A stretch of DNA of 64,000 nt, from assembly GCA_004022145.1 (NCBI GenBank), contig RCNU01000002.1. The stretch is one strand, 5' to 3'. Positions 17,798 to 25,446 of this stretch are shown piece by piece. Under the pieces are notes generated by a model. That model searched no databases and had not been told where the DNA came from. It saw only the letters and a list, made by a program, of their open reading frames with translations. Every line of letters begins with the position of its first letter. Position 1 is the stretch's first letter. A program made the translations under genes and the position numbers. This DNA is from Paecilomyces variotii. Lineage: Eukaryota.

Positions 17798-18847
17798 CTA
17801 AAGAGCCCCAAATTTCTGCAATTCCGCCTCAGTCCACTCCCACAATCGTTTCCCCATGTCCTTGTTCACTGCATAATAATTCTTGGCTTTCAGTATCCCA
17901 ACTGGGACATAGTATGCACCGTTCATCAAGTTCTCCTTTTTGGCCCCCGCAGCGGCCCAGAGTTGATTATAGGCGCCCTTAGACAATGGAGTAGCGAAGA
18001 CCCCCATGACCCTCGAAGAGACAGTCGTAAAAATAGAATTTTTCCACATGGAGTCATAAAGGTCAGTCAGGATAATACCAGGGTGGACAGACACCGATGT
18101 GAGTGAAGGGTAGCGACGAGCTAGCTCTGCTGCGAACAAGATATTGGCGGCTTTAGATGCACCGTATCGGACCATGCTCTGACTAGTCTTTTTCAACTTC
18201 TTCTGGTCCAAGATACTCTCGAACGACGGGGCCATGTTATGTCCTATAGACGAAAGAGAGATAACTCGGACATCGGAGTTCGGCTCTTCTGCGGTTTTAA
18301 GCAGAGTGGGCATAAGCAGCTTTGTTAGAAAGAAGTGACCGGTGTGATTCGTGCCAAGCTGGATTTCATGACCCATCTCTGTTTCACCTGGCGGCAGAGC
18401 CATGACTCCAGCATTGAGCATCAGAATATCCAGTCTCGAGGCCTGTGATTTGAATGTCTCTGCAGCATTCTTGATAGAAGTTGTAGACGTCAAGTCCAAA
18501 GGGAGCCAGGTGATGTTCACGTCCTTGCCAAGGCTGTTCTTGATGGAGTCAATTGCATCCTTTGCTTTGGACTCTGAGCGAGCAGCAAGGAAGATATGCT
18601 GCGGGTTGTGTTTGGCAAGTTGGAAGACGGACTCCTTGCCCAATCCCGCGTTTCCTGTATAGTTGCTTCAGTTGAGGATGTTCATCTCCATCAATGATCG
18701 CTTTGGCGATCGCACTTATTGACTGCACATACCACCAGTTACCAGAATAACCTTTCCTGTAAGATCTCCAATGTCCCTATCCGGTTCGAAATTAACTGAA
18801 CCCATGTAACTACATGGATTCACAAAATCTGCGACCAACGATGCCAT
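17798..18847 (-). CDS. Short-chain dehydrogenase/reductase (retinol dehydrogenase/WWOX-like), 1 intron
   Basis: DLTGKVILVTG|GNAGLG Rossmann motif across the intron, LDILMLNAGVM, TNHTGHF, catalytic YGASK, SVHPG. Start is 18847 or 18805. Confidence 0.9.
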
Positions 18848-19666
18848 TTTCAAGGGTAAATTGAACACGTTGGGCCAATACTCTGGGACGTCAATGTTGG
18901 CAGACTCAATATGCCGGACAGTTGAAGTGACTGCTATTCATTCCCCAGGGTTATTGCTGCCCTAAAACCACGCCAGTTATTTAATCATGACTGTGAACTG
19001 TATCCATCGAGGTCGACCCCATGGCGTAGCGATCAGGTCTCTACTTTGTGGAGAATCGGCGAGACTCAAACGCCCGAGTTATTCAAGCATCCTGGAAGAA
19101 GTATCCACTAAAGGGGATTCCATACCAGAGAGCCCCCAATGAAAAGTGGTCTGGGATCAATTAGTCTCGACGGAAAGGTATGTCCAAACGGTTTAGGTTT
19201 GGATACATTTGCCTCAGCTACAAATGCCTCGGTACAACGTGCCTGTCGGGCAGTCGGAGGTTAACATTCCGCCGGTCAGTGAACTGTTGGCATTAACTGT
19301 TTCATCTTGACTCTAACAGTAACAATATGACTCTTTGTGTTTTCATCTATCTTAAATTATATTCAGCCATAAAGTGTGCAAAACAAAGTTTCCCTTCCAC
19401 CTAGCTGTAGCGGGTTATATATTCAGCCTAGAATAGGCGGTGTGTGAGTAGTTATCCGGGATGGTGATCAGATCGTGGCGAGAAACTTCAATTTATAAAC
19501 TGTAAAAAAGGGAATAGGAAAAGAAAAGAGCAATAACAACCCGACAAGGAACTATCTGGTATTTTTTATTTTCAATTTTTTGACACTGTCCACGCATTTT
19601 ACAAGAAAAAGATGGTACGAACAGCCTCCGCTCATATAGCCTCAAACGGAAAGTTACTGCAAATCG

Positions 19667-19791
19667 GGTGCTGTGGTCTAGTGAGTTTACCTTTAACCAA
19701 CCACATCACCAACTTAAAACTAACCCCCCAATTGGTGGTAGGACGTCACGTTGTGGCCGTGCCAGCCTGGGTTCGATTCCCAGCAGCGCCA
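19667..19791 (+). tRNA. tRNA-His(GUG), copy 1, with a 54-nt D-loop intron (19681-19734)
   Basis: Joined exons give 71 nt: acceptor GGTGCTG/CAGCGCC, D-stem GTCT/GGAC with loop AGTGGTA, anticodon loop TTGTGGC (GTG 19753-19755), T-arm CTGGG-TTCGATT-CCCAG, discriminator A, downstream T6 Pol III terminator. Confidence 0.88.
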
Positions 19792-20959
19792 AAATTAAAT
19801 ATCTTTTTTGGTCCCTTTCTATATCATAGCGCGGGTTACACTCGAGATAGCCGGGACTGGCTTTTTTCTTTTTTTCTTTCTCTCTTTCACTTTCCTTTAA
19901 ATCAGTTTTGCAAGACCCGTTGTGTATACCAGGAATGGAAACAATCTTATTTGAAGGAGGTTTGAGAATTCTAGAAAAATGCATGTAAGATAGAGGCCAT
20001 GTCCGTCCACGGGTAAAAGCCGACGTTTGTTCTCTAGGACATGATTCTTTGTGTGTTCTAAAATGTTAAATCTAATCTCGAGCAGAAATAGTCATAGTAC
20101 ATCTATTCTGCTTTGTCGCGATGTAGTAATCGCCTGGATGCGTTCGAACACAGCTTGCCTTGAAGATCAAAAAAGGTGGTGCAACTTCTCAGTTCGCAGT
20201 GATACACACAATGTTTGTCGAAACTCACCGATATTCTATCCAGTTGTCCCAGCAGGATCGCGCGAGATAGTATGTTATGGCACATTCTGGTTTTCTTTTT
20301 TTCAATCTCAAGGCGTGTCTTATTGAAATTGTTGCAATCGCTGAATATAAAGCTTGAGATGACGGAAGTAAGTACTGAAAGGACATTGTATTCTCTGTTT
20401 CAAGGGAATTTGTCTCCATTGCAGGTTCTATTATCAACATGGAATTAATATGGTATGTGAGAATCATTCTCATAATCAAAGTCGTATCTCTCATTGTTGG
20501 ATATGCTCACATATGATAATTTGGTTCTCAATCTCTTAGTTACGCCAAGTCAAGTCAGTGTTGAGGTAAACAGCTATCCGCTGATATTGGTGGATATCTG
20601 AGTAGTTAGAATTCTCTGAATCCGTCGCATTAACAGCGCTTTTACGTTTAATACTGGCTTCAGCCACCACTCGTTTTGCTAGCCTTTGACTCCTTCATGT
20701 CTAGCCTTAGATGAAATCCTCCCTCACCTGCTTGAAACCAGATTATGGCCGGACATAGTTGTCAAATGATTAAAGCACGTAATTGCATATCGAGGTTAGT
20801 GTTCCCGACTTAGATGGCTCCGTCTCGACTGTCAGTCCAGACGGTGATCTTCTTTACGAGAACGGGTAATTGTTCCGCGCACCGACGTAGCAATTTGGAA
20901 AAAGTATATTGAGAAGCACTATAGACATGCTCAGGTTACGGCGAAGTATATGAATATGA

Positions 20960-21560
20960 TCTTCTCTGCGTTGTGGTTGAATATGGTATCATAGACGTTC
21001 TTCGCATGCTGCTTGATCATCATTTAGAGTACCAAATTCCGCTTGTATATACGCCACCTGGAAACGATTCAATTCCTGCTCGATAAGAATGGGCTCAAAC
21101 TACTATTACCCACAGCGAAAGCCTGATTTGCATGCTCCTCACAAGGGGGCTTTGGTTCGCAATGCTGATTCTATCCGACAGCCAGGACAGCAGCGTGAAC
21201 AACACAGTTCGAAACCGTGCTTGGATGGGCTGCCTCCAGGGCTAGCTATAATTTAGTGTCCCCTCTTATTGCCAACGGGGCGAATGTCCATGCTCGGCAG
21301 ATGGGTCCTGCAGGTTCTCGGCTTGGTATCCAGCAGGTCACTGCGCTGCATGTGCGAGCTCTTGCTGGAATTATAGAAGCCATGCAGGTACTACTGAATC
21401 ATTGCGGTCGCGATATCGAGCTTTCAGAGATGGTATCTCGGCGTGGTAGCAAGAGATGTCTCCCACCGCACTGGGTGGCCGCGGGCAACACTCAGTGATG
21501 AAGACCTGCTCCCCAACGATGAGTCTACTCACCAGACCATAGAGACCTTCAGGCTGATAT
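20960..21560 (+). pseudogene. Degenerate ankyrin-repeat gene remnant
   Basis: Fragments LCVVVEYGIIDVLRMLLDH, VLGWAASRASYNLVSPLIANGANVHA and VTALHV..., broken by stops and frameshifts. Confidence 0.55.
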
Positions 21561-22608
21561 TAACGGGCAACGCTCCTCTCGATGAAGGTGTGGGGGTTGG
21601 GGCAAGCTCCTGGCCAGGTAGTCAAGGAATAGACCACTTGAGAGGACACATGAGGGCCGCATTTGAGCGCAAGATGGGATGGGTCGGGAATTTCAAGAAG
21701 CCGAAGGCTTAATGGATAAACCGAATAATGCGAGAAATGTACCATCACAGCGATCGGAAGAAGTGATGCCAAATGGGATAGTGAGGAAGAGTGGGGAGAA
21801 GACGATTTGCCTGAAGGGGTAACCTCCCCATACGTCTATAAGATGAGTTCTACTGCAGCAGGCATGAATAAAACTCTTTTCTCTCTCCAGTTTTCTGCAC
21901 TGCACGAATGCTACTTGATTCCATACAAGTTTCTCTATCGAACTACTCTTGCTGTTTGTCCCATCTTTTCAAATGGCCTGCTCTCGTTGTCCCGGATGCG
22001 CTTGCTTCTGCGATATAGTACGTCGATCGTCGCTCTTCAAGCCGTGCCTTCAAAAGCGGCAAATCTGTGACTTGAGCAAAATGTGGCCACAAGAGACCCT
22101 GTCTAGTCAGGTGGATTGAATCTCAGCATTCACATTGAACGCTGCCCAGAAGCACATCGATTTGTTCCCACAATGTTGGGTTGCCATCCGCTTGAAAACG
22201 ATAATACGCGAAGTCGATGTCCAACACATATCCACCAGGTCTCCCGGTCTCGATTCCAAACGAGGCAACTCAATTGATTTGTATGTGACCGAGGTTAGCG
22301 TAAAGTCCCAAAAAGAGTCCCTTGCCTCTTTTGCGTGTATAGCAGAACCCTGTTTCGTACCATTCTTCAAAGGCGGGAAATCGGTGACGAGAAGTGGGCG
22401 TAAGTAAGCTAGTCAGGATACAAAGACAGATTTATGACTTCTTAACTTATTTTCACGCGATAGAGTAAGGACAGTAACCCTTGGCTTTTTATTCATAACT
22501 AATGCGCGGTCTTAGGATACTGTACAGTGTATGCTATCATTGGCTCGCATCTATCTCTGGTTCACTAGCTTCATAAGTTTCCACGGGTCTGATTAGATCA
22601 TCAAATCG

Positions 22609-22732
22609 GGTGCTGTGGTCTAGTGAGTTTTGCCTTTCATCCAGCATCAACCAACTTTAACTAACCCCCCCATTGGTGGTAGGACGTCACGTTGTGGCCG
22701 TGCCAGCCTGGGTTCGATTCCCAGCAGCGCCA
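22609..22732 (+). tRNA. tRNA-His(GUG), copy 2, with a 53-nt D-loop intron (22623-22675)
   Basis: Exons identical to copy 1; intron diverged internally but keeps GTGAGTTT...ACTAACCCCCC.ATTG; T-runs follow 3'. Confidence 0.88.
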
Positions 22733-24497
22733 ATCTTGTATATCTTTTTGCATTTTTTCTCTTCATTTTTTTCTTCGGCAAGATGATGGTCTACTGACAA
22801 ATCGGCACGACATAAGGGCATCGAGGTCTAGATCACTTGGCTTCCACGGGCCTCCTTCAATTTGTGGGAAGGGAATATATGAGTAGGTAGGTAGGTGTAC
22901 TTGATTGGGTTTATGATCTGTCTGATATTTGAAGCGACGTTATCCTCCAGCCTGCAACAACTGTGGACAAATTCTTTTTCTAGTTTTATGTATATTTTTG
23001 GTGTGGGCTGTATAAGTACTTGATGGACTGGATTTTATTCCTAAAAGTTCTAACGTAAACACACCACAATTGACCTTTACGCTCCTTGACTATGGAATCT
23101 TTCCAGGTCTATAGGAGAGAAAGCTGAAGCTGTTATCAAATATACCAAGCGTCTGCCTTTCTCCACGTAATATGGAATCTAATCTCACCGACCATCTTGG
23201 AAAGATGAGGCTGCCAGCCATTGTATCGTTCCGTAGCACAGTCACGGTATATCTGAAGACTCTTTGTCGGAGTCCAACTCTGGTATGCCGCTTTCAAGCA
23301 TCCAAAGCCATTGATACGCATATGGATGGTTCATATCCTCTGGTATTCGGCAGAACTTGACAAAGCTGAAGATCTTTGGTGGAACCTGGAACCTTTTCCT
23401 TTAGAGCCGTTGGGAATATGATGTCACTAGGGAATCGCAATCTTCAAGTTTGCTCAGAACCACAAGAAGTATGACTGACCTTGTTGAAAAGACATAAGAT
23501 GTTTAATCAAGTTCTTCTGTCTATTGGATGATATTTCGTATTTTTCGAACTATATCAGCTTGCATTCTCAAGGTAGCCGAAGACATTCGTTGAATAAAGA
23601 TTCTCTGGTTCTCGATCTATTATAGCAGCCTTTCTCGCTTTCTCTATGCTGGAAATAAAAGTAAATCCAATCCCAGGTTGGGGTTTCCTTTCTACATATA
23701 TCAGTATTTTCATGCGAAACTCCCTACGCAAGGGCATTCAACAGTGTTTTCAGCATTTGTGCATGCTATTGATTGTGCAGGGGTGGACGAAGAAAACGAA
23801 ATGCATACTGATATAGAAGAAGTGTAGTTTGATAGGCGATCGAGCACCATATTGGTATTTTGGCTAGGAGACTCAAGGGAATGTGGATGAATACGTCGCT
23901 CTCATCAGGTCCAGAACAACGAGTGATTAGTTGAAATGTACTACTTGAGGGCCAAATATAACTTGATACCATTCGAATGGCCATGGGGACCGGCCAGTCT
24001 AGAGCAGCATCCTGTCTGGCAGAACCTTCAGGCTAGCTTCTCAGTTCTCATTTTCTTCAAGACAGGAGTCCGCACATATTTCGTACAAATATTACGCAGA
24101 TATTATCGCGAAGAGACTGTTTGTCGGCAAGCTCCTGGAGTATCTCGCGCTGGCTAGGTTTACCTATTGTTCGAGACGGTTCACCGTTCCACAGAGGTGA
24201 GATCAGTGGAGTTGGCCCTTCTGCATAACACCCTCGGCAGCGCGCAAGCCATAGTCAGGTTCTCACAATATATTTTCTCTCAATATAAACATCTAACCCA
24301 GAATATAATAAGGCGTCGAGAAGTTATCTAAATCTTGACCGCAACATCCCCTTAGCCCATTGCGAAATAAGGACCTCATGTGCTGTCTATGAGTAGTTTG
24401 TCAAGACACAAATGTAGCAATGCTCGCTTTCACCTCGAATAGACATTCATTTTGCTGAGGGGATAAAAAAACAAAACGCAAAAAGATATTTAAATGT

Positions 24498-24622
24498 TGG
24501 CGCTGCTGGGAATCGAACCCAGGCTGGCACGGCCACAACGTGACGTCCTACCACCAATGGGGGGGTTAGTTTTGAGTTGGTGATGTGGTTGGTTAAAGGT
24601 AAACTCACTAGACCACAGCACC
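24498..24622 (-). tRNA. tRNA-His(GUG), copy 3, with a 54-nt D-loop intron (24608-24555)
   Basis: Exons identical to copies 1 and 2 on the minus strand; intron differs from copy 1 at 2 positions; T-run terminator follows. Confidence 0.88.
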
Positions 24623-25446
24623 GATTTTTATTTGCCAGCGACAATTTAAAGATCTATCAATGCATATGGACGTGCCTGCAACTTTGTCCTGTTCAGGATT
24701 AGCATAGCATATTAGGAGGTGATAGTTACAGAGTGAAAACCATCTCTTTATTATTCTTAACGTCTACTATAATATTAGCTCTATTATACTAGTAGGAAAT
24801 ATTTCTAATAGCCAAAAGGTCTTAATATCGTGATTAGTATAAGGATATCTGTTATTTATTATTTGCATTCTGCGAGGAAGTCCACAAGCCACGCAGCGGA
24901 AAATAACTACCATAACCACTCTGTCTGGGAATACCAATATTATCGAGGGCCACTACTACTAACTGGTATCGGATACGGTCCATCCTCGATCCGATCAGGG
25001 TCTGCACTAGTTGAGAGTCTGTGCAACCCCGCCGTTTCGGATCGTGAACAAGAACAAGTCATGCTCTTCCCCGTGGGACAATTAGTGTACCCCGCGTCGA
25101 GTGGAGATCCGAGGCATTCCCGACTAGCTGACAGGTCGATGCCGAAATATAGTACCGTTGACGATTCTGTCTACCAAGTCATCGGGTAGGCTATTAAGAA
25201 ACCGGGCTTAGCTCTGTACGACAAGCCAGAGACCATATCCCGAATGATCGCTGCGCATCCAGCACGGACCTCAGCATCGGATGCTGCTGTCCGTATTCCG
25301 ATCAATTGAGACTAAAGCGTGGAATGTAGTTGCGACCAGGATAGGATATCATCCAGTACCCCGCGCAGATAACGTAAGTAGGTGATATTTATTACACGCA
25401 AGGAGCAAACCCTGGACTATAACAACCACCCTGGCCCGGGAATTAG

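Follow-up and report, generated by a model that had tools for sequence, protein, structure and literature searches.

Three tRNA-His(GTG) genes of an ascomycete are split in the D-loop by mRNA-type inserts that have to end in TG

Three tRNA-His(GTG) genes lie within the 64-kb window of Paecilomyces variotii DNA analysed here (the whole stretch under study), and each of them is interrupted in the D-loop by a short insert. A script run on all three copies (3/3) divided each gene into a 14-nt exon 1 ending in GGTCTA, an insert of 54, 53 and 54 nt, respectively, and a 57-nt exon 2 starting with GTGGTAGGAC; the exons are identical, with 0 of 71 positions differing in all three pairs. The insert breaks each gene after A14 and its border falls at 14–17/15–18 in the D-loop. 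Copy 1 occupies positions 19667–19791 on the plus strand, from G1 to A73, as delimited by reading, by script and by ARAGORN on the joined form. Its exon 1 (19667–19680) comprises tRNA positions 1–14, its insert (54 nt in the GT..TG register, with a rightward slide of up to 3 nt) spans 19681–19734, and its exon 2 (19735–19791, 57 nt) contains the D-loop GG, the GTG anticodon arm, the B box GGTTCGATTCC, the 3' strand of the acceptor stem and A73. The insert opens with the donor-type motif GTGAGT (19681–19686) and harbors the branch-site-type motif ACTAAC (19719–19724; branch A at 19723), which is followed by a C-run (19724–19729). The obligatory 3' end is TG at 19733–19734, with T at -3 and G at +1, and a canonical-looking TAG (19739–19741), corresponding to U20, A21 and G22 of the tRNA, is found 7 nt past this TG in exon 2. 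A T6 run (19804–19809) that resembles a Pol III terminator, and would act as one, lies 13 nt 3' of the gene.

Copy 2 is also on the plus strand (22609–22732; exon 1, 22609–22622; exon 2, 22676–22732) and contains a 53-nt insert (22623–22675) with a diverged middle and one TTTT, while copy 3 lies on the minus strand (24622–24498; exon 1, 24622–24609; exon 2, 24554–24498) with a 54-nt insert (24608–24555). These copies have T5 runs at 22745–22749 (plus strand) and 24484–24480 (minus strand), so that each of the three genes has a T5 or T6 run 12–13 nt downstream. The B box GGTTCGATTCC occurs at only these three loci in the 64 kb (3 matches vs 0.37 expected), and the 22-nt 3' end of the gene occurs 3 times vs 0 in 100 shuffles. 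Since the insert starts with GTGAG, exon 1 and the first insert bases together make a near-complete A box, as judged against the A-box consensus, and the split gene would thus keep this element. The features of a nuclear tRNA-His gene, namely the cloverleaf, the GTG anticodon, A73, the B box and a T-run after the gene, are all present. A fourth match to the pattern of exon 1 plus donor, at 21527–21540 with 2 mismatches, proved to be unrelated sequence.

The likeness among the copies is confined to a leader of ~8 nt (CAAATCG-like), the gene and a trailer of ~20 nt up to the T-run (19659–19809, 22601–22749 and 24630–24480); beyond the leader and the T-run the flanks of the three copies are unalignable. 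It seems from these alignments that only the presumed transcription unit was duplicated, or that it alone was held alike by selection or conversion.

Standard annotation misses these genes. Neither ARAGORN, run over the whole window, nor Rfam with its gathering thresholds called a tRNA at the three loci. At loose thresholds, Rfam returned sub-threshold matches of the tmRNA model, which belongs to the tRNA clan, spanning each split gene (19667–19794, 22609–22733 and 24495–24622) at 17–20.5 bits vs a cut-off of 47, and mascRNA matches were also obtained at the three loci. Inserts outside the anticodon loop place tRNA genes in a blind spot of annotation: neither ARAGORN nor the Rfam tRNA model at curated thresholds detects such genes, and fungal tRNA gene counts may therefore be incomplete.

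The ends of the inserts are closely alike in the three copies. All three (3/3) start with GTGAGT, contain ACTAAC with its branch A 11 nt before the last base, continue through the C-run and end in (A/C)ATTG. Because GTG stands at both insert ends, four registers yield an identical product, GT..TG, TG..GG, GA..GT and AG..TG, and GT..AG is never among them; a read-alignment tool independently found that 3 letters fit either side of the joint. There is no AG from the branch site to the insert end in any copy (past the opening GTGAG, copy 2 has one AG, upstream of the branch site), and the first AG after the branch A is that of the exon's TAG at 19739–19741, 18 nt from the branch A. ARAGORN recognized the script-joined TG-register product of copy 1 as a canonical 71-nt tRNA-His(gtg), whereas the AG-register product was a 64-nt form with a truncated D-arm that had lost 7 exon bases, including the D-loop GG, and the unspliced gene gave no ARAGORN call. 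The 3' terminal AG of U2-type GT-AG introns is absent and the terminal dinucleotide has to be TG. The original prediction had stated that an intact D-loop demands an ...ATTG end, that is a GT-TG intron, in all copies; that the canonical TAG 7 nt downstream is the first AG after the branch point; that use of this TAG would delete 7 nt with the D-loop GG and collapse the D-arm; and that the junction slides by up to 3 nt with no GT-AG register. Each of these statements agrees with what we read, and it is only the TG register that gives the canonical tRNA.

To place the inserts among the mRNA introns of this genome, 19 candidate coding introns were collected from the window, each defined by a GTRNGY donor, a CTRAY motif and an AG end, and flanked on either side by an open frame of 50 codons or more. 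These candidates are short and of the filamentous-ascomycete kind, with a median length of 61 nt (40–120) vs 53–54 nt for the tRNA inserts. GTAAGT, GTATGT and GTGAGT lead among their donors (GTGAGT in 3/19), and the tRNA inserts have GTGAGT; their branch motif is CTRAY, which is ACTAAC in 3/19 as it is in the tRNA inserts; and their branch A lies 10–35 nt (median 18) from the 3' end vs 11 nt in the tRNA inserts. As length, donor, branch motif and branch-to-end distance all match, the tRNA insert is an ordinary intron of this genome save for its last two letters, and, the terminal AG having been looked for and found absent, it falls short of full membership in the GT-AG class. The first 8 bases of the insert are identical among the copies and the last 18 differ at 1–2 places, while several substitutions and ~5 indels set the middle of the copy 2 insert apart from copies 1 and 3. 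This pattern points to selection on the exons and splice signals, and for the identical exons either selection or conversion may be named. By our own arithmetic a GTRAGT start together with a suitably placed CTRAC would arise in a random 54-mer about 3 times in 100,000, and a chance origin of the insert motifs is not plausible.

Two other intron assignments were rejected. U12-type introns have the donor consensus RTATCCTT and the branch site TCCTTAAC, and the GTGAGT donor and ACTAAC branch motif of the inserts rule out this type. Splicing of the same 54 nt from the minus strand would use the registers CA..AC, CC..CA, AC..TC and CA..CT, and was likewise discarded.

Evidence at the RNA level came from four public runs, of 21 found, that were aligned on 19300–25000. 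Three of these, X1–X3, are food-fermentation metatranscriptomes and the fourth, X4, bears the same species label as the DNA data sets that match best; the library type of X4 is given as 'RNA? (a guess)' and the contigs show neither strand nor abundance. All 8 of the 8 aligned X4 pieces are at least 99% alike to the window, with 0 other letters. The X4 depth is 354.5 upstream of copy 1, ~9 downstream, 0 over 20255–22355 and 975 at 24866–25000, a profile that is RNA-like and unlike DNA. One X4 contig of 1817 nt (record 21) matches 19300–19683, and its next 55 nt are those of exon 2, the joint being ambiguous by 3 letters; the aligner placed the exon 2 part on copy 3, whose exon 2 is identical. 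In this contig the 54-nt insert is gone in the D-loop-restoring (TG) register and the joint is attached to copy 1's own flank, which is present over at least 384 nt with 0 other letters. The contig extends upstream over a short-chain dehydrogenase gene at a mean depth of 354.5. By our arithmetic, the depth bins of X4 are fully explained by the listed pieces ((2 x 354.5 + 110 x 9.17) / 191 = 8.99; 55 x 354.5 / 191 = 102.1), which leaves no further listed X4 contig over the insert in either copy 1 or copy 3. The TG-register junction on the copy 1 flank is therefore present in RNA-like data, which supports the claim of the original prediction that productive removal requires the TG acceptor, and it is found in one contig from one of the four runs. 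Moreover, the long 5' flank on the spliced contig points to a long transcript, probably made by Pol II, rather than a Pol III precursor.

The short-chain dehydrogenase gene has two exons, lies upstream of copy 1 at 17798–18937 on the minus strand and matches Pfam adh_short with an E value of 3.6e-20. A further X4 joint, from 22737 to 22817, starts 5 nt behind the 3' end of copy 2 and skips 79 nt (22738–22816, plus strand) between GT and AG; the skipped stretch starts with GTATAT, has TACTGAC ~19 nt before the AG and contains the T-run terminator of copy 2. Spliced long transcripts thus pass through a tRNA gene.

The other three runs are less simple to read. X1–X3 cover 26–30 of the 30 bins of a 5.7-kb region that is mostly non-coding, may hold DNA, and contain unspliced copies (records 3, 5, 9, 14, 17 and 20). 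One X1 contig starts at 19735 and is preceded by 22 loose letters that consist of a different 8-letter leader and exon 1; this loose end may represent an intron-less gene, a spliced transcript of another locus, or another organism. Intron-less tRNA-His genes are probably present elsewhere, given this form with its other leader and the intron-less genes of A. niger, and the three split copies need not be essential. In A. niger, the tRNA-His genes in the available part of a published table are either 71 bp long and intron-free or 84 bp long with a 12-bp intron (PMC6108506, Table 1).

Taking the gene anatomy and the RNA data together, we consider it probable that all three are nuclear tRNA-His(GTG) genes, each with a U2-type, mRNA-type D-loop intron that ends in TG, in tandem with a TAG 7 nt downstream. 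We infer the role of the spliceosome from the motifs, that is from the donor and the branch site, and Pol III precursors, as well as longer read-through transcripts, would be spliced in this manner. A stronger reading, which we put forward tentatively and on balance doubt, is that this is a constitutive GT-TG intron of a Pol III-type tRNA-His family, in which the folded tRNA body hides the TAG and the spliceosome finishes at TG as the only productive site.

One competing explanation, which we consider unlikely, is that the copies are idle or decaying and are not productively spliced. The X4 junction would then stem from a paralogue or segmental duplicate that has no intron, from template switching at GTG, or from an assembly path through abundant words of the mature tRNA-His. 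The junction is non-canonical, comes from a single contig and is flanked by a direct repeat, and a short direct repeat at a junction, here the 3-nt GTG, is a hallmark of reverse-transcriptase template switching. This reading would also accommodate the unspliced contigs in X1–X3, the failure of standard tRNA finders and Rfam at the three genes, and the intron-less tRNA-His forms such as the X1 loose end at 19735 with its other leader. But the X4 contig follows the copy 1 flank over 384 nt with 0 other letters before it enters exon 2, and a random artefact would not rebuild a perfect tRNA. Contigs are presumably built from 31-letter words, in which case crossing the joint takes reads in which ~12 leader bases found in copy 1 alone accompany the joined D-loop, which speaks against an assembly path by way of an unrelated gene that has no intron. 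Decay likewise sits poorly with exons that differ at 0 of 71 positions while the copy 2 insert has diverged, which argues for selection or conversion, and with A-box-like and B-box sequences and T-runs that are intact.

The preferred reading, an mRNA-type intron, must also be weighed against removal by the tRNA splicing endonuclease and ligase acting on a relaxed fold resembling a bulge-helix-bulge (BHB), with GTGAGT and ACTAAC as relics or coincidence, an explanation that we likewise regard as unlikely. It has the merit that the endonuclease route knows no AG rule, and hence the TG end would need no explaining, and D-loop introns removed through a BHB are known from Cyanidioschyzon merolae and archaea, according to the accessible text of PMC3978253. 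Copies 1 and 3 allow, in register +3, a central helix of 4 weak pairs (UUUA/UAGG). Against this, no convincing BHB emerged: the best placement over the four registers has 2/4 outer pairs, 2/4 inner pairs and 4 weak central pairs, and it differs in copy 2. The insert position is not 37/38, and the donor, branch motif, branch-to-end distance and length match the mRNA introns of this genome, the signals being conserved where the middle of the insert is not. In addition, the transcript bearing the spliced form is long, with a 5' flank of at least 384 nt, and does not have the shape of a tRNA substrate.

A third alternative, also unlikely, is that the spliceosome mostly uses the TAG, giving a 64-nt dead-end product that is degraded, with the TG product minor or regulated in a productive/non-productive switch. 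In its favour, UAG|G has a perfect acceptor sequence and a normal spacing of 18 nt to the branch A, and in the accessible part of one survey (PMC2374985) every human TG acceptor is an alternative to an AG close by. But the sole joint seen is in the TG register and the X4 contig follows the TG path, while the AG-register joint (19680 to 19742) is absent among the 6 joints listed for the four runs, an absence that weighs little since contigs lose minor forms and unstable products. Of the other mechanisms in the original prediction, first-step-only cleavage followed by another ligation route has nothing in its favour here, and the regulated switch finds no support among the joints listed for the four runs.

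If the genes indeed contain mRNA-type introns with TG acceptors, splicing might proceed as follows. As with other short fungal introns, the donor and branch site would bring in the splicing machinery, and the nearby TAG may aid early recognition of the 3' end. In the second step, exon 1 would be joined to the G following UUG, 11 nt from the branch A; the TG site retains a G as its last base, with a pyrimidine at -3 and a purine at +1. The TAG lies at the edge of the D-stem, where G22 pairs with U13, and the folded tRNA body may shield it. The TG is also nearer to the branch A (11 vs 18 nt), which may contribute to TG winning over TAG. The outcome would be a normal 71-nt tRNA-His. Against this reading, a perfect UAG|G stands just 7 nt further on, at a normal 18-nt distance from the branch A, and a constitutive TG would exceed the human precedent as given in the accessible part of PMC2374985.

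We also considered whether RNA structure could guide the choice of acceptor. The original prediction proposed that ACCAA pairs with TTGGT in all copies, with ACTAAC in the loop, and that the non-canonical acceptor is chosen under guidance of this structure. Complementarity of ACCAA and UUGGU spanning the 3' junction is present in 3/3 copies. Folding of the pre-tRNA placed the helix of AUCACCAA with UUGGUGGU in the minimum-energy fold of copies 1 and 3, with pair probabilities of 0.4–0.7 and a local z of -1.98 (24/500 shuffles were equally stable). In copy 2 the helix was not predicted (pair probabilities at most 0.07, z -0.37); there, an extra A would have to bulge, which breaks the helix. Moreover, the helix would bury the TG and not the AG. 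Being absent from copy 2 and burying the TG, the helix is not taken as the acceptor guide, and as a general guide it was rejected on the predicted folds. Thus, the proposed complementarity holds in every copy and the helix itself is predicted in two of them, and, of the three mechanisms that had been offered, a non-canonical acceptor fits best, with the helix a weak candidate for its cause. The fold of the whole pre-tRNA had no extra stability over shuffled sequences (z -1.02, 30/200), and plain thermodynamic folding gave the D-stem a probability of ~0.001.

The TG-AG arrangement has a partial precedent in human genes. In human U2-type introns, TG acceptors were reported only where an AG lies in tandem no more than 28 nt away, the base at -3 being a pyrimidine and that at +1 a purine (Szafranski et al. 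2007, PMC2374985). The accessible text of that survey has no case of TG as the sole acceptor and describes AG>TG mutants as failing to splice at TG, and its authors suggest an early need for an AG, with TG open to choice at a later stage (PMC2374985). The tRNA-His inserts resemble these tandems, as far as that text describes them, in the GT donor, the TG acceptor, the nearby AG (7 nt here, with a limit of 28 there), the T at -3, the G at +1 and the conservation of the flanking intron. They differ in that the human TG, by the same partial account, is usually a minor site in protein-coding genes of vertebrates, whereas here only the TG product is seen and it is the sole one that gives a working RNA. 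Here, too, the competing AG sits inside the tRNA body of an ascomycete tRNA gene.

For mRNA-type introns in snRNA and rRNA genes, the primary papers are reportedly those of Tani and Ohshima and of Takahashi et al. Spliceosomal introns are described in U6 genes, which are transcribed by Pol III, and in U1, U2, U5 and rRNA genes, including those of fungi, and tRNA genes do not figure in this list in the accessible part of the source (PMC5855946). The tRNA-His inserts share with these cases, as presented there, a short spliceosomal-type intron with donor and branch consensus in a structured non-coding RNA gene with Pol III features in fungi, a likeness that rests here on promoter-like and terminator-like sequence, the spliced contig probably deriving from a longer transcript. 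Unlike those introns, as described in that source, the present ones lie in a tRNA D-loop and end in TG.

Ectopic tRNA introns in a D-, anticodon- or T-arm are removed via a BHB in Cyanidioschyzon merolae and in Crenarchaeota, according to the accessible text of PMC3978253. With these introns, the inserts share a position in the D-loop of a nuclear tRNA gene and a split A-box region; in contrast to them, as that text describes them (a BHB and no splice-site or branch consensus), the inserts have mRNA-intron motifs and no convincing BHB. In the parts available of a 2023 review (PMC10275265) and a 2025 paper (PMC12530127), tRNA introns are removed by endonuclease and spliceosomal introns are a feature of Pol II transcripts; the two classes are treated there as unrelated, with separate machines. 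Among open-access papers and bioRxiv preprints, full-text searches turned up none that describes a tRNA gene with a spliceosomal-type intron. Two pattern scans of metagenome contigs for relatives gave 0 matches and 1 match (L001, not a tRNA), and no orthologous intron was obtained by them.

If the proposed reading is correct, a family of tRNA genes would rely on mRNA-type splicing, which would cross this class line and extend the U6-type cases to tRNA, and there would be a class of tRNA substrates that the spliceosome processes via a non-AG acceptor. These genes would also provide a compact natural substrate of 125 nt with a yes/no readout, 71 vs 64 nt, that bears on 3' splice-site choice by the spliceosome between a competing non-AG and AG set 7 nt from each other.

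The surroundings of the tRNA genes have a few features of their own. Within 6832–28269, ~21 kb round the tRNA genes, there is no ATG-started ORF of at least 250 aa, vs 12 in the rest of the window, and the GC content is lower (0.445–0.476) between 8 and 24 kb. An adjoining 828-aa protein falls in clusters of the raffinose-synthase family, the members of which are mostly from Ascomycota, which, along with the kind of short introns, marks the host as an ascomycete. Finally, X1–X3 harbor a relative that is 90–99% alike and in which three intergenic segments beside the tRNA genes are replaced by other letters, 19572–19627 (54 by 66), 20528–20684 (155 by 150) and 20897–21021 (123 by 165), which looks like strain- or species-level indel polymorphism.
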